This document shows, in pieces, positions 5,184 to 62,883 of a stretch of DNA of 64,000 nt. The first letter of the stretch is position 1. Each line of letters begins with the position of its first letter. The stretch covers positions 5,568 to 69,567 of the forward strand of contig JAFQVL010000063.1 in the NCBI GenBank assembly GCA_017408045.1, in the 5' to 3' direction. The notes beneath the pieces are model-generated. The model was not told the DNA's origin. It ran no database searches and saw only the letters and a list, made by a program, of their open reading frames with translations. Position numbers and translations under genes: made by a program. This stretch comes from Clostridia bacterium (GTDB taxonomy: Bacteria > Bacillota > Clostridia > Christensenellales > Borkfalkiaceae).

Positions 5184-6290
5184 TTAGTTGTCCATTTTGA
5201 CGGGCATCATCAGATACTCGCTGCCGTTTTCCTCTAAGCCCTCTACCGTATACGGCGACATCGGCGAATTGAAGGAAAGCACCGCTTTTTCCCCGGTCAG
5301 CGCCTTCAACGCCTCTAAGAGATACTTACCGTTGAGCGCAATTTTCAGTTCCTTGCCTTCCACTTCGCTCTTTTCCAAAATCTCATTGACGTTGCCCATA
5401 TCGCTCTGCGCCTGCAACACGATACCGCCCGTCTTGATCTCCAAAACGATGAGGTTGTATTTATCGCCGCGCATAATCACGATTGCGCGCTCTACGCAAT
5501 CTATGAGTTCCGCACGGTCCACAGTCGCCTTCGTCGTAAACGCCGCAGGGAAAATATGCTCCTTTCTGACGAATTCGCCAAGGTACAACTTGGATTTCAA
5601 AACGGTATCGCCTACGGACACCGACAGCATATTTTTCTCTACGTACAGTTTGAGGTTTTCATCCCCTTCCAAAATACGTGCGATTTCCGTCAAAGTTCTT
5701 GCGGGGCATACGATTTTTAAGTAGCCCGAGCCGCCTTGCAGGGGGCAGGAAGAAACCGCCATTCTAAACCCGTCCAAAGCGGTAGCGTTCAACGTGCCTT
5801 CGCTCGTTTCCAAAAGGCAGCCGCGAAGAATGGGGCGGCTGTCGTCGGTAGCGCAACAAAATACCGTGTTCGCAATCAGTTTTTTCAAATCCTCTTGCTT
5901 TACCTCGAGGTAATCCTGCGTAGGGTCGGCAGGAATGACGGGAAATTCTTCCGCAGGCAGAGTGGGCAGCAGGGTAGAACTATCGCCATAATGGATTTTC
6001 ATACCGTTTTCCTTGTAAGAAATAACAAGTTGCTTGTCCGCAATCTTATTGACGAAATCCGAGAAAAATTTACCGTTTACGCAAATTTCCCCTTCGTCTA
6101 AAACCTCTGCTTTCATGGTTTTTTTAATGGAAATTTCCCCGTCGAATGCGGTCAGCGTAATACTGTCGTTTTTGACGGAAATTTTAATACACTCATAGGC
6201 AGGAATTAACGTTTTCGTAGCGCAAGCCTTCGATACCGTAATCGCAGCATCCGCCAACACCAAACCGTCGCACATAAATTTCATATTCAT
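5184..6290 (-). CDS. dnaN: DNA polymerase III beta sliding clamp
   Basis: 368 aa with three-domain clamp-like sequence (MKFMCDG..., LNATALDGFRMA, ...MMPVKM). Confidence 0.9.
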   Translation of the reverse strand: MNMKFMCDGLVLADAAITVSKACATKTLIPAYECIKISVKNDSITLTAFDGEISIKKTMKAEVLDEGEICVNGKFFSDFVNKIADKQLVISYKENGMKIHYGDSSTLLPTLPAEEFPVIPADPTQDYLEVKQEDLKKLIANTVFCCATDDSRPILRGCLLETSEGTLNATALDGFRMAVSSCPLQGGSGYLKIVCPARTLTEIARILEGDENLKLYVEKNMLSVSVGDTVLKSKLYLGEFVRKEHIFPAAFTTKATVDRAELIDCVERAIVIMRGDKYNLIVLEIKTGGIVLQAQSDMGNVNEILEKSEVEGKELKIALNGKYLLEALKALTGEKAVLSFNSPMSPYTVEGLEENGSEYLMMPVKMDN

Positions 6291-6419: not shown

Positions 6420-9400
6420 TTATAACTTATACCAATAATAATCGTAGTATGTCATCCTAAAATATTTTGCGTTGGTGGACGAATCCTCTACGCTTGTATT
6501 TGTACCGCCCGTTTTATTTTGCCAAGAATACAAGTTTGTTGTTTGATACCAAGCAAACGTGTCCTTAAAGGTAACGCTTGCCAAATTGCCGCACTTGTAG
6601 AACGCCTCTTTGCCAATACTCATTACACCGCCACCGATTTCTACGTTCGTCAAGCCGCAAGAATAGAAAGCTTGAATGCCGATACTCGTCACGCTATCGG
6701 GAATGACCACGTTCGTTAAACTGCTGCATGTGGCAAATGCATAATCACCGATAGACGTGACACCGTCACCAATTACCACACTCGTCAAACTGTTGCAACC
6801 GTAGAACGCATACTGATCGATGCCGCCACACGTAATTCTTACTTCCTTCAAGGAAGTAGGAACATAACTAGCATTATTCTTATAACTACTCCCCCCGAAA
6901 AGATACCCCAAGGGCTTATCTGCGAACCCGTCTTTTCTGTACCAACCAAACGGCATCGTAATACTTTCCAGCGATGAACAGCCATAGAACGCACTCACGC
7001 CAATCGAAGTTATGCTGTCGGGAATGACCACGCTTGTCAAAGTGTTGCAATTATAGAAAGCGCGTTCGTGAATCTCAGTAATATACGAAGGCAAAACCAA
7101 GTCCGTTTCCGTCCCCACGTATCCAACCAAAACCTTTTGGTCTCCGTCTGTACAAATTACATAGCCGTTGTCGTTAAGCAATTGACTTTCCGTTATACCG
7201 CTATCGCTATTGTATACCGCCAAAGCATAATACCCTACGTAGCCGTTGGTGGAATAACCTTTTTCCACAGTAATATGCGTAGACTTATTGATAACTTCTA
7301 TAAGTCTATTACATTGATAGAACGCCTTTTCGCCTATCGAAACAACGCTATTCGGGATAACCACACTCGTCAAACTACCGCAATTATAGAAGGCGTACGC
7401 CCCAATCGTAGTGATACTGTTGGAAAATTCCACGCTTTTCAAGCGATTGCACCAATAGAACGCATCGTCGCCAACATACACCACACTATCGGGCATAACA
7501 ACGCTCGTTAAATGATAACATTCGCTAAACGCACCGTTCTCAATACTGATTACTCCGTCCGGAATGATAAACGTCGTCGCCGTTTTTGCGGCTGCATATT
7601 GAATAAGCCTTGTCCCGTCCTTCGTATACAAATTACCTTCTATGGATTGATACGCCGTGTTGTTCTGATCAACGGTTACATTCGCCAAGTTAGTGCAACC
7701 ATAGAACGCCATTTTTTCTATCGAAATAACGCTTGCGGGTATGTCTATACTCGTCAAACCATCGCAATAAGCAAACGCTTTTTCACCGATAGAAGTTACG
7801 CTGTTCGGGATAACCACGTTCGTCAAGTTCTTAAATTGACAGAACGCATAATTTCCAATCGTGCTTACACCGTCGGGAATCACAAACTCGGTTATGATTT
7901 CGTTGTTTACATACAAATTCTCTACTCGCCATAAAGGATTTGCGGAAGAATTGCTAAACGAAATATTACACCAAGCCGCAAGATCCGTAATATATATCCC
8001 TTTTAACATTGTGTCCATTCCAGAGCCGAAGGCATAATTGCCTATTGAATTTACGCTGGCAGGTATGGTGATACTCTTCATATTTTCGCAAGACTCGAAC
8101 GCATAATCACCAATCGAAGTAACGCCGTCGGGAATCACCAAATCCGTTATATATTCATTGTTTACGTACAACGACCCTGCATACCATAAAGGGTTGGCGT
8201 AAGAATCCCCAAACGAAATATTACACCAAGCCGCAAGACTATCAACGTATACCTTCCATAAACCATTGCAATAATAGAATGCACCTTCGCCAATAGACGT
8301 TATATTGTCAGGAATGGTTATGCTTGCCAACTTATTGCAATCCTTGAATGCGTAATCGCCAATCGTATTTACGCTATTGCCAAGGGATACGCTCTTCACG
8401 CTGGCGCAATAAGCAAACGCTTTTTCACCAATCGTAATTACGTTTTCGCCGATGACTACACCTGTCGCGCTATCACAATAACAGAACGCACCTTTCCCGA
8501 TACTCACAACGCTGTTAGGAATGGTTATACTCGTCAACCTATGGCAATAAGCGAACGCGTAATCCCCAATCGCCGTTACGTTGATGGGAAGTGAAAACGA
8601 AGTGGCGCTTTTGCCGATTGCGTATTGAATAAGTGTTTTTCCGTCTTTGCTGTATAAATTTCCATCTATGGATTGATACACCGTATTGTTTTCCGATACG
8701 ATTATGCTCGTCAAGTAAGAGCAATCATAGAACGCTTTTTTTCCAATCGAAGTGACACTATCAGGAATAGCTATGCTTGTCAATCCGTTGCAATAAGCAA
8801 ACGCATAATCCCCAATGGAATTTACACCGTCGGGAACGGTTATACTCGTCAAACTATTACAATAATAGAACGCATTTTCGCCAATCGTAATTACGCTGGC
8901 GGGAACGGTTATGCTCGTCAAGCCCTTACAAAACTCGAACGCGCAATCACCAATCGAAGTTATGCCGTCGGGAATGGTTATGCTCGTCAAGTTGTTGCAA
9001 GACTCAAACGCGCCGTAAAGGATATTACCGCCTTTAACCACTACCGTTTTTAACGAAGTCGGAATATAGTAGGTGGTGCTGGTTGTACTGCTTGTGCTTG
9101 AACCGTAATAAGATTGTACGGTTTCTGTTCCGCCTGTATAACTATTCGCACCGAAAATATACCCGAACGGATATTGATAAGTATCGGTTGCTGTTTTTCT
9201 GCTGCCACCCACAAATGGAATGGTAATGCTTTTCAGCGAAGAACAACCGCTAAATGCGCCTTCCGAAATACTCGTTACGTAGTCGGGCACGACGATTTCC
9301 GTCACGTATTTATTTTTTACGCCCGTAATCTCACAGGTGGTCGTTGTAGACGTGAAGTTAAAACCGCTCATTTCCGCTTTTAACGCAAACTTTGCCGTCA

Positions 9401-11546
9401 CGTTTTTATCCACCGTGAATGCATATACCAAATCGGTAGAAAGCAATTCATTTCCGCTGTACCAGCCGATAAATTCATAGCCTAAATGAGGTGTTGCCGT
9501 TGCCGTTATAGCCTTGCCGTATTTATACGTACCCTTGTTTGTAATCGTGCCGTAAGTGGTATTATTTACCGATAATACATAAGCATTTCTCGTATAATAT
9601 ACGCTCAAAACACGGCCGCCGTCGCCGTCGATATTGCCACTTACCGTACTCATACTTGCGTTGTAGGTAAAGTGCGCATATTCCTTAATTGCCGCCGTTG
9701 CGGTGGTATCCGTTTTTCCTTTGCCTTCCACCGTTTCGTGCGGCGTGTAGTTATCATTGTCGATATTTTGCAAATAATAGATAACCGTGTATTTCGTATC
9801 GGTGTTTACAGACCAAGTCGCCGTATACGATGCGCTTTTTTCCGCTTTGAAGGTAAATACTTCGTCTTTACAAACGCAAGTTTCACCTTCGTACCAACCA
9901 AGCCAAGTATACCCTGCATTGGTGTTTGCTGTCAACGTGATTTGCTTGTCGTATTTATACGTACCTGCGCCCGAAATAACACCTGCTTTATCGTTGCTCT
10001 TCGTCGTGGAAATCGTATAGAAATTCCGTTTATAATATACGCTTAAAACTTGGCTACCGTCGCCGTCGATATTACCGCTCAATACGTTTTTAAAATACTC
10101 TTGATTGAGTGTAAAATGCGTATACTCCTTAATCTCTGCTTCTACGGTAGTATCCGTTTCCCCTTTACGTTTTTCGGTTTCGTATAAGGTATATTCGTCA
10201 TCGTCAAGGTTTTGCAAATAATAATTGACCGTATATTTTGTGTCTTTATTCACATACCAACCTGCCGTAATGGTCGTGTTTTCCGTAATCGGTTTTGTAA
10301 AATCGTAATCCCACCCTGTAAAGGTATAACCTGTCCTTGTTGTGGTTGGCTCGGTGGCAAGATAGCCTTCTTCTATCGTTTGCTTTTCCACCGGCGTACC
10401 GCCGTCTACGTCAAAGATTACTTCGTACTTATGCAAACGGTAAAGGTTTACCGTATACGTATTGCGCAACTCGTCGTCCAACATCTCAAATACGTATGCG
10501 ACGTTATTTCCTTCTTGTAAAGTTATCTTTTTCGTTGGAATCGGGGGCACACCGTTTTTATCAAAAGAAAGAATAAATTTCGCCTTTCCTACTACCGCGA
10601 CTTCGTCTACAAACGAAAATTCCGTTATTGCGTTTCGCACCGTGCCGTAGACGTTCGTGCCGTCCACGGTAAGGGTGTTGAATAAAATACCCGTTTCCTC
10701 TTGAAGTACATAGCCACAAACGGTGCAGGTTTGCGGCGTGTTTACTGTTGCGGGCGCACCTGCCGTGTGTTTTTCTTCGTTTTCTTTATCACCGCACTCG
10801 CATTCATGCCAATGGTGGGTGTCGTTGCTTTCCCATTCCGTGCTGTGTTCATGGGGGAGCTTGTCGATAGGCTCGGTTTTCGTTGCCGTTTTGCAAACCG
10901 TACACGTATAGGTCGTTTCGCCTTCTTTCGTGCAGGTCGGGGCTTTGGTTTCTTCGCCCTTATCCCAAGTATGTACGCCCGTCGCAGGGATTTCTTGGTA
11001 GGTGGAATACTCACACCCTTCTCTTTCGCAGGTTACGTATTCTTCCCAACCGATCTCCGTACAGGTGGGGGCTTTTGCTTGGTGTGTTTTCTCATCGTGC
11101 GTAAGGGCTTCTACGTCTTCGGTATAGGTCGCTGTTTCACAAACAGTACACGTAAACGTTTTTACACCCTTTTCCGTGCAAGTCGGTTCGGTGGTTACTG
11201 TACCGTCATCCCAAGTATGTACGCCCGTTACGGAAATTTCCTGGTAGGTGGAATACTCGCACCCTTCTCTTTCGCAGGTTACGTATTCGTTCCACCCAAT
11301 TTCCGTGCAGGTGGGGGCTTTTGCCTCGTGGGTTTTTTCATCGTGCCCGAGCGCAAGAATTTCTTGTGTGTAAGCACTGCCACAGGAGCAAGTGTACGTG
11401 ATTAAACCTTTTTCTATACAAGTCGCATTTTTTGTGATTTCCGCCGTATAAGCGTGCTCGTGTTGTTCACGGCACGCAGAAAAACCGAATATACATACAA
11501 GCATCGTCGTGATTGTCATAATAAAAAGTAAACGTTTCTTTTTCAT
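6420..11546 (-). CDS. giant cell-surface lipoprotein: Cys-rich repeats, Listeria-Bacteroides-type repeats and a BspA-type leucine-rich repeat array
   Basis: I chose the start at ATG 11546 because it has a GGAGG RBS. Signal peptide with lipobox (MKKKRLLFIMTITTMLVCIFGFSAC). Two about 82-aa near-identical Cys-rich repeats (HDEKTH.AKAPTCTEIGW.EYVTCEREGCEYSTYQEI...) span about 10853-11345. GYTFTGW repeat modules follow, then dozens of IP..VTSIG..AF..C..LTSI LRR units. Confidence 0.8.
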   Translation of the reverse strand: MKKKRLLFIMTITTMLVCIFGFSACREQHEHAYTAEITKNATCIEKGLITYTCSCGSAYTQEILALGHDEKTHEAKAPTCTEIGWNEYVTCEREGCEYSTYQEISVTGVHTWDDGTVTTEPTCTEKGVKTFTCTVCETATYTEDVEALTHDEKTHQAKAPTCTEIGWEEYVTCEREGCEYSTYQEIPATGVHTWDKGEETKAPTCTKEGETTYTCTVCKTATKTEPIDKLPHEHSTEWESNDTHHWHECECGDKENEEKHTAGAPATVNTPQTCTVCGYVLQEETGILFNTLTVDGTNVYGTVRNAITEFSFVDEVAVVGKAKFILSFDKNGVPPIPTKKITLQEGNNVAYVFEMLDDELRNTYTVNLYRLHKYEVIFDVDGGTPVEKQTIEEGYLATEPTTTRTGYTFTGWDYDFTKPITENTTITAGWYVNKDTKYTVNYYLQNLDDDEYTLYETEKRKGETDTTVEAEIKEYTHFTLNQEYFKNVLSGNIDGDGSQVLSVYYKRNFYTISTTKSNDKAGVISGAGTYKYDKQITLTANTNAGYTWLGWYEGETCVCKDEVFTFKAEKSASYTATWSVNTDTKYTVIYYLQNIDNDNYTPHETVEGKGKTDTTATAAIKEYAHFTYNASMSTVSGNIDGDGGRVLSVYYTRNAYVLSVNNTTYGTITNKGTYKYGKAITATATPHLGYEFIGWYSGNELLSTDLVYAFTVDKNVTAKFALKAEMSGFNFTSTTTTCEITGVKNKYVTEIVVPDYVTSISEGAFSGCSSLKSITIPFVGGSRKTATDTYQYPFGYIFGANSYTGGTETVQSYYGSSTSSTTSTTYYIPTSLKTVVVKGGNILYGAFESCNNLTSITIPDGITSIGDCAFEFCKGLTSITVPASVITIGENAFYYCNSLTSITVPDGVNSIGDYAFAYCNGLTSIAIPDSVTSIGKKAFYDCSYLTSIIVSENNTVYQSIDGNLYSKDGKTLIQYAIGKSATSFSLPINVTAIGDYAFAYCHRLTSITIPNSVVSIGKGAFCYCDSATGVVIGENVITIGEKAFAYCASVKSVSLGNSVNTIGDYAFKDCNKLASITIPDNITSIGEGAFYYCNGLWKVYVDSLAAWCNISFGDSYANPLWYAGSLYVNNEYITDLVIPDGVTSIGDYAFESCENMKSITIPASVNSIGNYAFGSGMDTMLKGIYITDLAAWCNISFSNSSANPLWRVENLYVNNEIITEFVIPDGVSTIGNYAFCQFKNLTNVVIPNSVTSIGEKAFAYCDGLTSIDIPASVISIEKMAFYGCTNLANVTVDQNNTAYQSIEGNLYTKDGTRLIQYAAAKTATTFIIPDGVISIENGAFSECYHLTSVVMPDSVVYVGDDAFYWCNRLKSVEFSNSITTIGAYAFYNCGSLTSVVIPNSVVSIGEKAFYQCNRLIEVINKSTHITVEKGYSTNGYVGYYALAVYNSDSGITESQLLNDNGYVICTDGDQKVLVGYVGTETDLVLPSYITEIHERAFYNCNTLTSVVIPDSITSIGVSAFYGCSSLESITMPFGWYRKDGFADKPLGYLFGGSSYKNNASYVPTSLKEVRITCGGIDQYAFYGCNSLTSVVIGDGVTSIGDYAFATCSSLTNVVIPDSVTSIGIQAFYSCGLTNVEIGGGVMSIGKEAFYKCGNLASVTFKDTFAWYQTTNLYSWQNKTGGTNTSVEDSSTNAKYFRMTYYDYYWYKL

Positions 11547-13977: not shown

Positions 13978-16308
13978 TTATTTCTCTATCGCCACGTCGA
14001 AAACTTCGCTGACGTTTTCCGTAAGTACGAAACGCAGCGTTTTTGCAATCTCCGCAGGAATATCCTGAATATCCCGTTCGTTTGCTTTCGGGATAATAAT
14101 CGTGGAGATCCCAGCGCGCGCCGCTGCCAAAGCCTTCTCCTTTAAGCCGCCGATGGGCAGCACTTTCCCTCGCAAGGTAATTTCCCCCGTCATAGCGACG
14201 TCGGTGCGTACTTTCTTTCCTGTGAACACGGAAAGGATTGCAGTAGCAATCGTAATCCCTGCGCTAGGGCCGTCTTTAGGGGTTGCTCCCTCGGGAACGT
14301 GTACGTGTACGTTGTTCGTTTCAAATAAATTCTCGTCGATGCCGTATTCCTTAGCGTTTGCACGTACGAAGGTCAGCGCCGCCCGCGCAGATTCCTTCAT
14401 GACGTCGCCAAGCTTACCTGTCAAGAGAATCTCCCCTTTTCCTGCTACCTTGGTTGCCTCGACAGTCAAGGTTGTCCCGCCGTACGCCGTCCAAGCAAGG
14501 CCGTTTACAGCGCCTACCTCAGGGCTGCGTTTTTCCTCGTTCAATACGTACATGGGTGCGCCCAACAGTTCGATAACCTTCTTTTTCGTAATCGAAACGG
14601 GACGCATTTTTTTATGGTCTGCATACTTCACCGCAATCTTACGGCAAACAGAGCCAACCGTTCGTTCCAAAGTACGCACGCCTGCCTCTAAAGTATAACC
14701 TTCAATCAAAGTCTGCAACCCTTCTTCGGTAAACAAAGCCTGTTTTTCGGTGATACCGTTTGCTTTTAACTGTTTAGGAATAAGGTAATGCTTTGCAATC
14801 TCCATCTTTTCTTGCAAAGTGTAGCCAGAAAGCCGGATGACTTCCATTCTATCTAAAAGAGGTTTTGGAATGGTGTCTAAGGAGTTTGCCGTCGTGATAA
14901 AAAGCACCTTGGAAAGGTCGTAAGGAACTTCCAAATACCGATCGCGGAAAGTGGGGTTTTGTTCGGGGTCTAAAACCTCTAACAAAGCAGAGGCGGGATC
15001 GCCGCGCATATCCGAGGAAATCTTGTCAATTTCGTCGAGTAAGAACACGGGGTTAATCGAGCCTGCGTTTTGCATCGCATACAAAACCCTGCCGGGGATT
15101 GCGCCGACGTACGTTTTACGGTGTCCGCGGATTTCCGCCTCATCCTTAACACCGCCAAGACTCATGCGCACGAATTTACGATTAAGCGCGCGCGCCACCG
15201 AACTTGCAATACTCGTCTTTCCCACACCGGGAGGACCTACCAAACACAAAATCGGGGCTTTCATATTCCCCGTCAACTTCAATACTGCCAAATATTCGGT
15301 GATACGCTCTTTGATTTTTTCCAAGCCGTAGTGATCGCTTTCCAAAACCTTTACGCAGTCGGAAAGTTTTTCGGTATCCTTCGTTTCTTCCGTCCAGGGA
15401 AGAGATAAAACTTGGTCTAAATAAGTGGTAATAATCGTGTATTCAGGCGCAGAGGGCTGTATACGACTAAGGCGAGAAACTTCCTTCAAGCACTTTTCTT
15501 CCACTTCAGGCGGCAGATGTTTTTCGAGGATTTTTTGCTTATATTCCTCTTCCTCTTTGCCGGTATCTCCCAATTCTTCGTGGATAGCGCGAAGCTGTTC
15601 GCGCAGGAAATATTCCTTTTGATTTTTGTCGATGCTTTGACGGACGGCGTTTGCGATTTTCTTTTCAATTTTTGCGATTTCCAACTCGTCGTTTAAGCAC
15701 TTTTCAAACAATTTCAACCGTTCTAAAACGCGCGGTTCTTCCAAAATTTTCTGCTTGATAGCATTGCGAACGCGCATAGAAGAAAGTAAAATATCTACGT
15801 ACTCGTCGGGGTCAGAGCAAAGATCTGCTTTTTGCAACAGCTCTTTTGCAATCTTCCCATCCGTTCCCAAAACGTCGGAAACGAGCGCTTTTGCCGTGCG
15901 AAAATACGCCTCTGTCAATACGTCGTCTCCCTTTTTAGGCGCAACCTCAACGACGTGCGCCCAAAAGCAGAGATCGTCTTGATAAAATTCAGAAATCTTC
16001 GCGCGATAAAGCCCGTCTGCGTGTACGCGAATCGTACCGCCAGGCAGTTTAGAAATCTGACGAACGCGCGCGACGACCCCGACGGTATACAAATCGTCGG
16101 CGGTAATTTCGTCCCGTTTACTATCCTTTTGAGAAACGATGAAAAGCAGACGGTCTGCATTTTCCGAGGCTTTTTCTACCGCTTTTAAGGTGCGTTCTCG
16201 CCCCGCCTCGAAGATAATCGAAACGTGCGGAAATGCGATTTTTCCCCGAAGGGGAATTAAGGGGATAGACAACTCCCTGATTTTTTGAAATTCTTGATTT
16301 TTTTCCAT
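13978..16308 (-). CDS. lon: ATP-dependent Lon protease (LonA)
   Basis: 776 aa with a Lon N-domain, Walker [10 protein letters not shown] and the protease active-site motif PKDGPSAG. Confidence 0.92.
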
Positions 16309-48387: not shown

Positions 48388-48396
48388 CAAGCAGAA

Positions 48397-48441
48397 AGAG
48401 AGAACAAATCGGTTCGTAGCCGAAACGTCTCTCTTTTTTTT
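48397..48441 (+). terminator. intrinsic terminator after mntP
   Basis: Stem AGAGAGA...TCTCTCT enclosing the inner hairpin TCGG/CCGA, followed by T8 (48434-48441). Confidence 0.7.
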
Positions 48442-48444
48442 GTT

Positions 48445-48643
48445 GGTGAAGTTTTTCCTGACGCAAAAGTGAAGTTGCTTTGCAGTGAAGTTTGTACTAT
48501 GCACAAGTGAAGTTAAGTTTGCCCACTTTGCCAAAGGCAAAACTTCACTATCCGTAGGATAACTTCACTTACACAGTAAACTTCACTTGCCCGCATGGGC
48601 AAACTTAGTTATGCGTGTTATCCTTAACGGAAGACACGCATAA
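48445..48643. repeat. mirror array 1: 4 x (A/G)GTGAAGTT, then 3 (+1 degenerate) x AACTTCACT, with palindromic mini-hairpin spacers
   Basis: Forward copies at 48445, 48468, 48484 and 48506. Reverse copies at 48541, 48561 and 48579, with a degenerate copy at 48602. Spacers are GC-TTT-GC, TGTaC-TAT-GcACA, ATCC-GTA-GGAT, TAC-ACA-GTA, TGCCC-GCAT-GGGCA and TTATGCGTGT-15nt-ACACGCATAA. All abut the repeats with no linker. Confidence 0.9.
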
Positions 48644-59387: not shown

Positions 59388-60827
59388 ATGATAGAAAAGA
59401 ATACGATTATTACCGCCGTGACGAGCGCGATTGGGTCGAACGGGGAAGGCATCGTCAGGCACGAAGGGATTACCTTTTTCGTGCCTGCTTGTTTACCGGG
59501 TGAAAAGGTGCGCTTTCGGGTTTTGAAGGTCAAGGACGGTATCGGATATGGAAAAATAGAGGAGATTTTGACTCCTGCCGAAGAGCGTGTACGTGAAAAA
59601 TGTCCCGTATTTTTGCGTTGCGGCGGCTGCAAATTGCAGCATATGGAATACGGCACGCAGTTGTACTTTAAGCAGAATATCGTCAAGGACTGTTTGCGCA
59701 AAATCGGGGGCTTAAACGTCGAGGTAAAGCCGACGGTAAAAAGCGATTTGCCCTACGCCTATCGCAATAAGTTGCAGTTGCCGGTGGGGGTAGACAAAGA
59801 GGGAAATACCGTCATCGGGTTCTATGCCGAGCGCTCCCATCGTATCGTGCCGACGGATAGTTGCGCGATTCATCCAAAGTGGGCGGAAAAACTGATTGCT
59901 GTCATCAAACGCTACTGCGCGGAGTGGGGTGTCGAGGGGTACGATGAGGACAGAAAAACGGGTGTTTTGCGCCATATCGTAGCAAGGGAAATCGGTGAAA
60001 ACTTCTTAATCACGCTAGTGTGCACGCAAAAGAGCCTTCCGGCGCTGCCGCATCTTATCGAGCTGCTTTCGATGGTGTTTTCCGTTTTCTCGCTGTATAT
60101 CAACGTAAACGACAAGGATACCAACGTAATTCTTGGAAAAGAGTTTCATCTCGTACACGGTAGCCCCGTTTACGAGGCGCAGGAACAGGGGATTTTGTAC
60201 GAGGCAGGGCCTCAGACCTTTTTGCAGGTCAATGAAAACGTGCGCTCAAAACTATACAACGCCGCCCTCAAGTCGGTGATTGAAACGGGGGACGAAGTGG
60301 TGGTAGATGCCTATTCGGGCGGCGGCTTATTGACGGCGATGCTGGCAAAGCGCGCAAAGCGAGTGTATGGCATTGAGTTAGAGCCAGAGGCGGTGGCTTG
60401 CGCCAATTCGCTCAAGCAAAAGAACGGCTTAAAAAATATGACGAACATCTGCGGCTACGTAGAGGAAAAACTTGCGGCGGTACTGGAACAAGAGCGCGGC
60501 GAAAAGGTGCGCTTAATTCTCGATCCACCGAGAGCAGGAATACACCGCAGCGTATTAAAGGCGCTGCTGGAAAGTGGGATACCGTCGTTGACGATTATCT
60601 CGTGTAATCCGTCGACTTTGGCGCGGGATTTGGGGATTTTGACAGGCAGACTGATTGAAAAAGAGGGTTCAAACGGAGAGTTGATTAAAAACCCTGCTTA
60701 CGAGGGTTTAGCAGACGACGAAACTCTGCCTGGGTACTACGCTCCGACGAAGATTCAGCCGTATGATATGTTCCCCCAAACGAAACACGTAGAGACGCTG
60801 GTTTGCCTTGCGCGCAAGGCGGACTAA
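59388..60827 (+). CDS. rlmD: 23S rRNA (uracil-5-)-methyltransferase RlmD/RumA family
   Basis: I chose the start at ATG 59388, which has an AAGGGGG RBS. TRAM domain, a 4-Cys Fe-S cluster (CPVFLRCGGCKLQH), LDPPRAG, ISCNPSTLARD and the DMFPQTKHVE C-terminus. Confidence 0.88.
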   Translation: MIEKNTIITAVTSAIGSNGEGIVRHEGITFFVPACLPGEKVRFRVLKVKDGIGYGKIEEILTPAEERVREKCPVFLRCGGCKLQHMEYGTQLYFKQNIVKDCLRKIGGLNVEVKPTVKSDLPYAYRNKLQLPVGVDKEGNTVIGFYAERSHRIVPTDSCAIHPKWAEKLIAVIKRYCAEWGVEGYDEDRKTGVLRHIVAREIGENFLITLVCTQKSLPALPHLIELLSMVFSVFSLYINVNDKDTNVILGKEFHLVHGSPVYEAQEQGILYEAGPQTFLQVNENVRSKLYNAALKSVIETGDEVVVDAYSGGGLLTAMLAKRAKRVYGIELEPEAVACANSLKQKNGLKNMTNICGYVEEKLAAVLEQERGEKVRLILDPPRAGIHRSVLKALLESGIPSLTIISCNPSTLARDLGILTGRLIEKEGSNGELIKNPAYEGLADDETLPGYYAPTKIQPYDMFPQTKHVETLVCLARKAD

Positions 60828-60896
60828 AATATCTATCCGCCCCCTGCGGGAGTTTATTGACGCAAGGGCAGGATACATATTTTAGTGTTTTACACG

Positions 60897-61034
60897 GAAA
60901 ACAAAAACGAGCGTATCAAGTGTTTTAGTTCGCCGTCGGCGAGAGACGGACATACATTCCGCTTTGCGGGATATATGTTCCCCCAAACCAAACACGTGGA
61001 AAGTTTAGTTTGTCTGACGAAGCAGACAAACTAA
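60897..61034 (+). pseudogene. relic 3' fragment of a second rumA/rlmD-like gene; 60897-60995 is direct-repeat copy A
   Basis: In-frame reading gives ...ERIKCFSSPSARDGHTFRFAGYMFPQTKHVESLVCLTKQTN*. Compare the genuine RlmD end ...ISCNPSTLARD...YDMFPQTKHVETLVCLARKAD*. There is no upstream body. Confidence 0.7.
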
Positions 61035-61259
61035 AGCGATATAAATCCTCACGGATTTGCGATATTTGCCTTGTGGCAAGCGATATGCCTGCGGCGCGAT
61101 ATGCCGCGAACTGCGCGGCGTGAGGATTTATAGGTAGCGTGCTTTCCACCACGTTCGCCATAGGCGAACATATCGCTGTTTCGCAACACGAAACAATATC
61201 GCGCGCGCGGAGCGAGCATATCGCGCACCGAAGGTGCATATCGCGTGAGCGAAGCGAAC
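61004..61259. repeat. mirror array 2: 4 x GCGATAT, then 4 x ATATCGC, with ten different flush mini-hairpins
   Basis: GCGATAT at 61036, 61059, 61080 and 61096. ATATCGC at 61170, 61196, 61218 and 61238. Hairpins are 61004-61035 (13 bp), AAATCC-TCAC-GGATTT, TTGCC-TTGT-GGCAA, GCC-TGC-GGC, GCCGCG-AACTG-CGCGGC, TTCGCC-ATA-GGCGAA, TGTTTCG-CAACA-CGAAACA, GCgCGC-GGA-GCGaGC, GCACC-GAA-GGTGC and a partial one at 61245-61259. Confidence 0.9.
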
Positions 61260-61349: not shown

Positions 61350-62354
61350 ATGACATCTTTGCTGCTAAAAAATTTTAGAGACCTATACAATAAACACCAA
61401 TTTAGTGATAATCTTCCTAATTATTCTGTTTTGTGGCATTATACCAGTGTTAATGGGCTTATGGGTATTGTACAAAATGCAACTTCAGAGCATGGAAAAC
61501 TGCACTTTTGGTTTACTCGTAGTGATTGTCTAAATGACACCTCTGAGGGGATGCATGTTTTGGATTTATTTAAGAGAATATGTTGTGAATTGTTAAGTAA
61601 GGGACAAATAAGCAATGCTTTTTATGAATGTTTGAAACACATTGAAATACCAAATAGCCACTTCGTTAGTTTCCCTGTTCCTAGCGACGAAAAATATACA
61701 CATATGAGTGTTCTTGATTGTCCAGAGTGCGATGCCTATATTTGCAGTTTTTCATTAAAAGAAGATTCTTTGGATATGTGGCGATATTATTCCAAGGGAG
61801 ATGGGGGCTATGCGTTAAAACTTTATGCATTTATGTTCGATAAACATAAGGAGTATGAGTATTCTGACTATGATGAAAAAGCTGTTTTCAGCAACATTTC
61901 TTCATATAAAGTCATTTACGATGAAGCAACTAAACAAAACATGCTCGAAAATGTCATTTTGGATACTTTCAAAGTTTATGAACAGTTAATAGAAACAGAG
62001 CCAGACTGTGAAGAAAACGCAATGGGTTTTATCAAGCACGCATTAAAAATATTCCAATTTCAATTTAAACACGACTGTTACGCTTCGGAACAAGAATATC
62101 GCTTTGTTTTTTATCGTCCATGTAGCAAGCCCGAATTGTTACAAAACGAACTACCTGAAGTGAAATACAGATCACAGAACGGAGTAATTGTTCCGTATAT
62201 AGACCTCACCATAGAAAATGGCGCATCGTACTTATCAGAAGTTTTAATTAGTCCATTTATCAAGAGTAAAGTGGTTAAAAAAACAACACAAGAATATTTG
62301 TCTCAATGTGGTATTAACTGTGAAGTACGACACTCGGAATTGCCTGTTCGGTGA
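61350..62354 (+). CDS. DUF2971-like protein
   Basis: I chose the start at ATG 61350 (MTSLLLKNF...). LWHYTSVNGLMGIV...WFTRSDCLNDTSEG...EQEYRFVF resembles the DUF2971 pattern. The gene is markedly AT-rich. Confidence 0.55.
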   Translation: MTSLLLKNFRDLYNKHQFSDNLPNYSVLWHYTSVNGLMGIVQNATSEHGKLHFWFTRSDCLNDTSEGMHVLDLFKRICCELLSKGQISNAFYECLKHIEIPNSHFVSFPVPSDEKYTHMSVLDCPECDAYICSFSLKEDSLDMWRYYSKGDGGYALKLYAFMFDKHKEYEYSDYDEKAVFSNISSYKVIYDEATKQNMLENVILDTFKVYEQLIETEPDCEENAMGFIKHALKIFQFQFKHDCYASEQEYRFVFYRPCSKPELLQNELPEVKYRSQNGVIVPYIDLTIENGASYLSEVLISPFIKSKVVKKTTQEYLSQCGINCEVRHSELPVR

Positions 62355-62421: not shown

Positions 62422-62883
62422 ATGAAAAAGTTATTAGCTTTATGCTTGACAGTAGTTTTATGCTTATGCTGTCTTGCATCGTGCGGTATTACGGGATTTC
62501 GTTCTATAAGCTATCAGGATGCTGACACGGAAAGGTTATTAATGGACGGTTATGCACCAAAAAGGGCAAAGCCCGGCGATATCGTTGTGCTCCGCACAGG
62601 TCCTATTATGGACGCCAACCTCGATTTATACGCTAATGGTGTAAAGCTCGATAACACCCATAACGATTCTGATTATTGGGAATATATTTTTACAATGCCT
62701 GACGAGGATGTTGTAATAACGCATGACATAATCGGTGGATTTGGATATAAGGAGTGCGTTAACCACATTGACGAAAACAAAAACGAGCGTATCAAGTGTT
62801 TTAGTTCGCCGTCGGCGAGAGACGGACATACATTCCGCTTTGCGGGATATATGTTCCCCCAAACGAAACACTTGTTTTCATAA
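62422..62883 (+). CDS. small lipoprotein whose last about 36 codons derive from the rumA-relic repeat
   Basis: Signal peptide and lipobox MKKLLALCLTVVLCLCCLASCG. The C-terminus ...NKNERIKCFSSPSARDGHTFRFAGYMFPQTKHLFS* is encoded by repeat copy B (62773-62871). Confidence 0.6.
   Translation: MKKLLALCLTVVLCLCCLASCGITGFRSISYQDADTERLLMDGYAPKRAKPGDIVVLRTGPIMDANLDLYANGVKLDNTHNDSDYWEYIFTMPDEDVVITHDIIGGFGYKECVNHIDENKNERIKCFSSPSARDGHTFRFAGYMFPQTKHLFS
62773..62871 (+). repeat. 99-bp direct repeat copy B (98/99 identical to 60897-60995)
   Basis: Base-by-base comparison shows a single C/G difference (60989 vs 62865). The last 23 bp, ATATGTTCCCCCAAAC[G/C]AAACAC, also occur at 60766-60788 inside rlmD. Confidence 0.9.

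Follow-up and report, generated by a model that had tools for sequence, protein, structure and literature searches.

The closest described relatives of the locus studied here are the Gut-1 elements, whose consensus consists of four GUGAAAU heptamers separated by three hairpins (Rfam RF01706; Weinberg et al., 2010, PMC2864571). The motif was said only to occur in human-gut sequence and to be probably a noncoding RNA (PMC2864571), Rfam and the 2010 paper name no function, mirror architecture or associated gene for it, and we found no later work on Gut-1 in the searchable literature. In this study, we describe a mirror array of heptamers and hairpins at positions 61004-61259 of a 64,000-nucleotide stretch of contig JAFQVL010000063.1 from an uncultured Clostridia bacterium (assembly GCA_017408045.1; the whole stretch is called the window below). 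We consider this array very probably to belong, as a divergent copy, to the Gut-1 family, whose members are structured elements found between genes in gut Clostridia (Oscillospirales) and in their phages. Moreover, we demonstrate that stand-alone genes of the protein family PF05635 are near-obligately preceded by arrays of this kind, and we propose, with a probability of roughly 0.4, that the array is the putative cognate multivalent nucleic-acid ligand of a PF05635 oligomer.

The left half of the array (61034-61107, + strand) matched the Gut-1 model with 33.8 bits (cmscan, E 8e-5 over 601 nt) and the right half (61254-61191, - strand) with 16.5 bits, both below the gathering score of 50 bits. 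Other GCGATAT-type arrays score 33-41 bits, and among other heptamer types L480 (GTGATAT) and L521 (GTGAAAT) reach 59.1 and 63.8 bits (L-numbers denote loci or contigs carrying arrays or their relatives). Right halves score as Gut-1 on the - strand, that of L521 above the Rfam threshold with 63.8 bits. Like the model alignment and the seeds, the window array has at least three hairpins of variable sequence split by copies of a conserved heptamer; the hairpins are free in sequence and flush between heptamers of the form G-Y-G-A-W-A-U, they are backed by covariation in an orthologue alignment, and the elements are confined to gut metagenomes and to Clostridia metagenome-assembled genomes (MAGs), that is, to gut-associated uncultured bacteria, all of the genome matches listed (at least 120) being MAGs. 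It differs from Gut-1 in its GCGAUAU heptamer and in its extent, as the Rfam model spans just three left-half hairpins. The original prediction had regarded this grammar as unlike any known family. That claim fails because the family, with exactly this grammar, was already catalogued in 2010, as the Rfam/Infernal scan revealed, and the Gut-1 seeds with their flanks already contain the mirror half and the closing repeat (PMC2864571, supplementary file 95). In seed BAAZ01000095, UAUAUUCGCC...GGCGA is followed by GCGAUAU and two GUGAUAU copies with hairpins, then by GGCGAAUAUA and four AUAUCAC copies (PMC2864571). A sister element in the window itself, built on GTGAAGT, exceeds the gathering score (48537-48611, - strand, 50.6 bits in a whole-window Rfam scan) and has its own closing inverted repeat, TAAGTTTGCCCA/TGGGCAAACTTA; its neighbours are convergent genes, and a bidirectional terminator stands behind it at ~48395-48440. 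The E. coli genome, searched with the locus, gave no match.

Within the array, four copies of GCGATAT and then four of its reverse complement ATATCGC alternate with flush hairpins (Table 1), which bears out the original description, including the heptamer as the invariant part. Four matches to the pattern GCGATAT-N7-25-GCGATAT-N7-25-GCGATAT lie in the window, 100 shuffles that preserved its dinucleotides gave none, and the heptamer itself is present in 17 copies against 8.6 expected. The C at 61169 is the sole exception to the flushness of the spacers. The LEFT unit is the portion that Rfam models as Gut-1, and units of this type are also found alone, in phage operons and at other loci; the RIGHT unit, read on the - strand, is a second, convergent Gut-1-like unit. 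Two details of the description had to be revised. The centre, taken for a plain gap of 35 nt, is 34 nt long and has internal complementarity, since its segment X (61119-61132) is a perfect inverted copy, 14/14, of 61040-61053 (the 3′ part of R1 and the 5′ arm of h1), and CTTTCCAC (61142-61149) is complementary to the rumA codons GTGGAAAG (60996-61003), forming a helix called P0. The hairpin h0, listed as a free spacer, is made of the last 10 codons and the stop codon of an ancestral rumA 3′ end.

Table 1. Coordinates of the array, its parts and associated features in the window
Feature	Position	Strand	Remark
Displaced ancestral rumA 3′ end, MFPQTKHVESLVCLTKQTN*	60973..61035	+	translation, repeat D2, orthologues
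h0 hairpin, 13 bp	61004-61035	+	flush with R1
R1-R4, GCGATAT	61036, 61059, 61080, 61096	+	start positions
LEFT unit R1-h1-R2-h2-R3-h3-R4-h4	61036..61119	+	portion modelled as Gut-1
h1 hairpin	61043-61058	+	spacer R1-R2
h2 hairpin	61066-61079	+	spacer R2-R3
h3 hairpin	61087-61095	+	spacer R3-R4
h4 hairpin	61103-61119	+	after R4
Centre	61119..61153	+	X and P0 complement
RIGHT unit h5-C-R'1-h6-R'2-h7-R'3-h8-R'4-h9	61154..61259	+	R' = ATATCGC
h5 hairpin, then single C at 61169	61154-61168	+	before R'1
R'1-R'4, ATATCGC	61170, 61196, 61218, 61238	+	start positions
h6 hairpin	61177-61195	+	spacer R'1-R'2
h7 hairpin, imperfect	61203-61217	+	spacer R'2-R'3
h8 hairpin	61225-61237	+	spacer R'3-R'4
h9 hairpin, imperfect	61245-61259	+	after R'4
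Terminator-like segment	61267..61340	+	blastn, 81% identity over 70 nt to the L369 post-PF05635 segment
Sister element, GTGAAGT x4 then ACTTCAC x4, flush hairpins	48446-48643	-	Gut-1 match

The narrow pattern GCGATATAAAT-N8-14-ATTTGCGATAT, taken from R1-h1-R2 and searched in the GTDB genomes, returned at least 120 loci, for a chance expectation estimated at less than 1 match in 596 Gb. Among the matches listed, all but one were titled as class Clostridia (Oscillospiraceae, Acutalibacteraceae, Faecousia, Ruminococcus, Christensenellaceae and others), the titles named ruminant and deer gut as sources, and often several contigs belonged to one MAG. Scans of viral contigs with three looser heptamer patterns gave ~330 listed loci, most of them unrelated tandem repeats or chance matches; a filter for at least two flush, non-identical hairpin spacers was passed by ~14, of which 3 were the window's own copies, and the viral matches that passed it are true arrays in phage contigs. 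In phage contig L292, three arrays directly follow the stop codons of the terminase large subunit, portal and major capsid genes, one of them filling the 145 nt between portal and Prp protease, and in phage contig L092 an array follows a head-tail connector gene. L292 also carries a second kind of mirrored array (489-607, 1617-1679, 8791-8907 and 10249-10359), in which three to four contiguous CAGTGCA/CAGTTGA copies, a short hairpin and inverted units follow one another without hairpin spacers; these may be iterons or operators.

Parsed from 130 instances, the consensus order is a stop codon or terminator, h0, R1-h1-R2-h2-R3-h3-R4-h4, a short linker, X, and R'1-h-R'2-h-R'3-h-R'4. Four plus four heptamers are commonest (57), followed by 4+0 (19) and 4+3 (11), the right half being absent in about a quarter of elements. 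Flush hairpins fill 201/247 unique spacers on the left and 167/198 spacers on the right, as against 7/247 and 7/198 after shuffling, and an independent set replicates this (52/57 and 68/80). The stems are nearly all Watson-Crick: G.T pairs make up 0 of 1044 left-half pairs and 2 of 948 right-half pairs. A C-G-A-G/C-G-A-G motif of tandem G.A pairs is conserved in the hairpins of the right half, on the + strand only (71 G.A against 0 T.C; 16 against 1 in a second set), and for this reason the right half, at least, is read as a single strand of defined polarity. The left loops TTC, TGAC and TTGC are reverse complements of right loops (GAA, GTCA and others); together with the - strand scores under the Rfam model this indicates that the right half is an inverted copy of a left-type unit. 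The class of X matches that of h1 (TCC/TCC 23 times, CCC/CCC 16 times, with no crossing, and several singleton classes match too), and R and R' agree in at least six heptamer types. Folding energies of the two strands do not differ in the left half, and in the right half RNA and DNA parameters disagree. The idea that h0 is a guide copied from each new target was rejected, as many arrays have a common conserved h0 (GCGTTGTATCC...GGATACAACGC).

The only recurrent downstream neighbour of the arrays is a protein of ~115 aa, found at 22 of the 120 listed loci and identified as PF05635, "23S rRNA-intervening sequence protein" (Pfam, E 6e-22 to 2e-28). At 21 of the 120 loci its gene stands on the same strand immediately after a full array, 15-35 nt beyond R'4. 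The reverse test gave a closer association: of 80 loci returned by a metagenome scan seeded only with the PF05635 protein alignment, about 74 of the 76 with enough upstream DNA had a mirror heptamer-hairpin array 60-240 nt upstream. The heptamer type follows the protein tree (GCGATAT; GCTAAAT; GTGATAT/GTTATAT; GTGAAAT), and in contig L440 each of two PF05635 paralogues is preceded by a heptamer type of its own. One of the loci, L480, is Weinberg's BAAZ01025322, was recovered many times among the gut-metagenome assemblies sampled, and reads tRNA, intrinsic terminator, array, sigma-70-like promoter, PF05635. At four loci (L406, L425, L394 and L415) the LEFT unit is duplicated, and X, RIGHT and PF05635 lie between its two copies. 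The genes that follow PF05635 in the 22 loci belong to no recurrent family, representatives including housekeeping genes, and no reverse transcriptase or transposase cluster stands beside the pair; the lack of a reverse transcriptase cluster downstream of PF05635 in these loci separates them from diversity-generating retroelements (DGRs). The closest homologues of PF05635 with solved structures, 2RLD and 2GSC, each have five chains per entry. The DGR protein Avd binds nucleic acid. PF05635 has been likened to Avd, the pentameric cofactor of the DGR reverse transcriptase (PMC10053308), and this link rests on the cited paper because a PDB sequence search with PF05635 did not reach Avd itself. 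In contig L521, two tandem c-di-GMP-I riboswitch aptamers (1109-1300, 48-50 bits) lie ~0.4-0.6 kb downstream of a PF05635 gene that itself stands behind a GTGAAAT-type mirror array. The near-obligate association of array and PF05635 appears to be unreported in the searchable literature, and so do the mirror architecture as a whole, closing repeat included, and the GCGAUAU subfamily, which is abundant in MAGs and has copies in phage contigs.

The window array itself has no such neighbour: no PF05635 open reading frame (ORF) was found in the 64-kb window, and thus neither of its elements is followed by a same-strand PF05635 gene. Its history can be read from its orthologues. As originally described, the array adjoins a rumA-tail relic; in relatives it is conserved at rumA with compensatory changes. 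In six orthologues (L367, L369, L377, L396, L408 and L452) rumA is intact, ends in ...HVESLVCLxRxTN* and leads directly into h0 and the array, and therefore the relic and array of the window represent the ancestral rumA end. The relic tail is an alternative C-terminus of the RlmD-type methyltransferase whose live copy ends at 60827, and it matches the live end at 60766-60828 (repeat D2); an insertion of 207 bp with a replacement rumA tail (60790-60972) separated the array from rumA. Homology of the window to L369 (reverse strand, 5714-6143) ends exactly at 61259 and resumes in the terminator-like segment, whose L369 counterpart lies after the PF05635 stop codon and which in the window nearly abuts the array. 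Both flanks are thus conserved and the window lacks exactly the PF05635 ORF and its ribosome-binding site (RBS), a clean presence/absence polymorphism of a 0.35-kb gene. Because L369, L408 and L452 carry PF05635, the window copy is the derived and gene-less one, and the ancestral order at the locus rumA, array, PF05635. The DUF2971 gene, which the original description placed after the array, is an unrelated neighbour; in the orthologues it is PF05635 that follows the array. Neither did the DUF2971 island replace PF05635: ~75 nt past the array still match the L369 post-PF05635 segment, so that only the ORF is gone.

The same orthologues confirm that it is the structure and not the sequence of the spacers that is kept. 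In the alignment of seven sequences, 93.4% of cells are paired, against 35-48% for slid partners, and 16 pairs (38 cells) have changed on both sides, a count reached by 0 of 500 shuffles. P0 pairs in 96% of cells, the closing helix P1 changes coordinately (CCTCAC/GTGAGG in some, CCTTAC/GTAAGG in others), and compensatory changes back the hairpins of many paralogues too. Several further observations concern this region. The rumA 3′-end core ATGTTCCCCCAAAC occurs three times (60768, 60975 and 62851, in regions 60766-60998 and 62773-62874), and a direct repeat of 102 nt, 98% identical, brackets a 1.9-kb unit of ~35% GC that contains the array, the DUF2971 gene (61350-62354) and an ORF for a lipoprotein-like protein of 153 aa. 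This unit resembles tandem small integrated cassettes at the rumA 3′ end, with no integrase in view, and in L369 a similar second rumA-tail relic lies 1.25 kb downstream. Exact look-up of the DUF2971 protein found only near-identical metagenome contigs, with identical copies in ENA contigs. Directly after the live rumA stop, inside the 207-bp insert, an inverted repeat at 60823-60886 (26-nt arms, 85% complementary, 12-nt loop) probably serves as the rumA terminator today. On L001, the contig to which the window's locus belongs, a TIR_2-domain protein of 447 aa is encoded beside a GDPD-domain protein (14402-15745), beyond the DUF2971 unit and about 8 kb downstream of the array; the pair may be defence-related cargo near a rumA hotspot.

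A same-strand ORF ends at most 80 nt upstream of R1 in 86 of 121 instances. Orientation by the replication strand was rejected: this polarity holds in both GC-skew orientations, and it therefore follows the upstream gene and not replication. The upstream genes are diverse (68 clusters among the 86), rumA alone being recurrent. Nor is the mirror half an adaptation to convergent transcription, because full arrays have a co-directional downstream gene 42 times and a convergent one 21 times. No convincing sigma-70 match was seen inside the array in the window or in L406. The original description asked whether relatives cluster near integrases or particular genes; there is no clustering with integrases, but PF05635 and rumA do recur. 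Comparison with Tn7 or Mu ends or with integrase arm sites found no support: neither a transposase nor an integrase adjoins the arrays, and target-site duplications are lacking. No recombinase recurs within 4 kb in the 120 listed loci, the half-arrays are 35-70 nt apart with nothing between them, and the longest word shared by the flanks follows the control distribution, L233 and the rumA locus being special cases. In L233 (4300-4620, both halves) the same 18 nt, CCCGGCTAAGCGAGCCGC, stand on both sides of the array and include the upstream stop codon, the 5′ arm of h0 lying within the repeat; this is the only clear duplication-like flank among ~100 arrays. Repeats of 7 nt, palindromic spacers of 7-30 nt and inverted halves also set the arrays apart from CRISPR.

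How might an array of this kind work? We suggest that in the full element, which consists of a LEFT unit, a short centre with the inverted start of LEFT, an inverted RIGHT unit and normally a PF05635 gene downstream, each hairpin would join its own two ends, so that the heptamers would be shown as single-stranded linkers at a fixed spacing, constant whatever the length or sequence of the hairpins. A ring-shaped protein could then read the four or five copies of a given heptamer with its subunits, in the way that spaced triplets are read by TRAP or that Avd may hold the DGR RNA. The bound form might be RNA or transiently unpaired DNA, and the role might be regulation of the flanking genes or spread of a cassette. 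Such a display model was the sole one we found that would explain the free hairpin sequence, the obligate flushness, the agreement of heptamers within an element and the clade-specific heptamers together.

Several observations weigh against this proposal. The linkage of array with PF05635, and of heptamer with clade, could reflect inheritance as one unit. About 80% of the listed GCGATAT-subfamily arrays, both elements of the window and every checked array in phage contigs have no adjoining PF05635, and because most arrays lack the gene, the protein would have to act in trans. Since GTGATAT and GTTATAT are mixed within arrays, recognition must tolerate position 3. The near absence of G.T pairs would be unusual for a structure acting purely at the RNA level, and the arrays of one clade, flanked by an intrinsic terminator on one side and the PF05635 promoter on the other, may be untranscribed. 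That four or five heptamers would suit a pentamer is so far only numerology. A wider form of the proposal seems to us rather doubtful: Gut-1 arrays and stand-alone PF05635 would constitute a two-component module of gut Clostridia and phages, in which a putative pentamer reads a clade-specific heptamer shown 4-5 times, with the halves read on opposite strands, and which either regulates genes with solitary 3′ arrays or spreads as a minimal cassette without a conventional recombinase. Opposite-strand reading of the halves would call for an unwound or cruciform DNA state or for divergent RNAs.

It is also conceivable, though we think it unlikely, that the array is a self-folding RNA transcribed with the upstream gene, in which each R pairs with an R' in a ladder of four-way junctions, perhaps alternating with P1. 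Its roles, at the same low likelihood, could be those of a small RNA or untranslated-region structure, for example a 3′-end or intercistronic stabiliser or a leader controlling PF05635 translation. The position of the LEFT unit behind a same-strand stop codon in the 86 instances given above, ahead of the real terminator or the next RBS, fits such a transcript, and so do the agreement of R with R' across heptamer types and the covariation of P1 and P0, which includes U.G pairs on the + strand. Energetically, the ladder is better than the hairpins alone by ~26 kcal/mol in 56 of 56 canonical arrays, every minimum-free-energy structure having at least two R:R' helices; in the window it reaches -92.7 kcal/mol, as against -63.5 for the hairpins alone and -85.2 for the P0+P1 alternative. 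Thus the part of the original prediction that suggested stacked four-way junctions is upheld as an energetic preference, but the nested R/R' partners do not compensate for each other: single-copy heptamer variants are uncompensated in 39 cases and compensated in 2, and for non-partners the figures are 115 and 3, the same ratio. Four lineages of the GTGATAT/GTTATAT clade have unlike bases at position 3 in the two halves, and the right half is lacking from about a quarter of elements. Moreover, G.U is nearly absent among more than 2000 stem pairs, the reverse complementarity of the loops (TTC/TGAC vs GAA/GTCA) is what two inverted units, and not one strand, would predict, and the clade with its array between terminator and promoter again does not fit.

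At a comparably low level of probability, the arrays could be DNA elements of a small mobile cassette, that is, recombination or insertion sites or the ends of PF05635 mini-cassettes. Selfish spread among gut Clostridia and phages, which we regard as no more probable, would make the solitary arrays footprints or non-autonomous copies, as in the pairs of repetitive extragenic palindromes (REPs) with their REP-associated tyrosine transposases (RAYTs) and of miniature inverted-repeat elements (MITEs) with their transposases. The four loci with X, RIGHT and PF05635 enclosed by the duplicated LEFT unit would be accounted for, as would the precise presence or absence of the PF05635 ORF between orthologues, a phage contig in which two 99%-identical copies follow different genes, the close similarity, judged by eye, of GCGATAT-clade PF05635 proteins across MAGs of different families, the tandem rumA-tail relics in the window and L369, hairpins that are perfect Watson-Crick palindromes, and the 18-nt direct repeat of L233. 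Yet no transposase, integrase or reverse transcriptase recurs nearby, target-site duplication is not general, with flank words at control level, and no hairpin is the same in two copies of one genome, as it would be in copy-and-paste repeats. The persistence of the rumA arrays across several species with compensatory changes points instead to purifying selection on structure. A cassette of this kind is compatible with the binding model.

Least probable of all is a REP-like palindrome cluster without a dedicated partner, whose hairpins would protect mRNA 3′ ends or insulate genes and whose heptamers would be mere linkers: the intergenic, post-stop positions, the diversity of housekeeping and phage late genes upstream and the abundance of the elements, two in one 64-kb window, agree with it, but it leaves unexplained why heptamers are identical within an element while their type differs between elements of one genome, as well as the fixed 4+4, the covarying X, the tandem G.A of the right half and the near-obligate array upstream of PF05635.

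Since 2010 Gut-1 has stood as an orphan motif, and to our knowledge the stand-alone PF05635 "23S rRNA intervening-sequence" proteins have had the same status for longer, from the early 1990s on. In the Clostridia of the human and ruminant gut each of the two is very common. Their linkage turns two function-less entries into one testable pair of protein and cognate array with natural variants of specificity. The Rfam model spans only half of the element and does not recognise the GCGAUAU subfamily, so that in each genome dozens of copies, as well as those in phage late operons, are left unlabelled. If the arrays are indeed read by the protein, those that stand alone after housekeeping genes and phage structural genes would point out the members of a regulon or of a parasitic network.

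Known systems resemble these elements in part. REPs and bacterial interspersed mosaic elements (BIMEs) of Enterobacteria and Pseudomonas, which have a RAYT as partner, are likewise abundant extragenic palindromes after gene ends, often in inverted pairs, of which a minority flank the gene of a presumed cognate protein and most are solitary. However, REP stems are conserved in sequence and carry a 5′ GTAG tetranucleotide, whereas in the Gut-1-type elements the stems are free, with 247 unique left spacers, and the heptamer is conserved; the RAYT is a Y1 HUH transposase, no Y1-transposase neighbour recurs at the array loci, and the protein linked to the arrays is a four-helix bundle. The Avd-DGR RNA and the 23S rRNA intervening sequences share a pentameric, PF05635/Avd-like protein family and a small ORF set in structured, inverted-repeat nucleic acid. 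The array loci differ from both in having no nearby reverse transcriptase or template repeat/variable repeat pair, in lying outside rRNA, and in that the array stands upstream of the PF05635 ORF and does not enclose it. In the trp leader bound by TRAP and in the CsrB/RsmZ RNAs bound by CsrA, short identical motifs are shown 4-20 times, single-stranded between or on hairpins, and a multimer binds them with avidity; in our arrays binding is putative and the motif is 7 nt long, variable between clades and present on both strands. Finally, the operators of the omega repressor of inc18 plasmids and the box A sites of P1 parS are arrays of 7-bp sites, WATCACW and ATTTCAC, in direct and inverted orientation. 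By this description they are similar to the heptamers in both sequence and arrangement, but they are contiguous or irregular in duplex DNA, have no palindromic spacers, and are read by ribbon-helix-helix or ParB folds.

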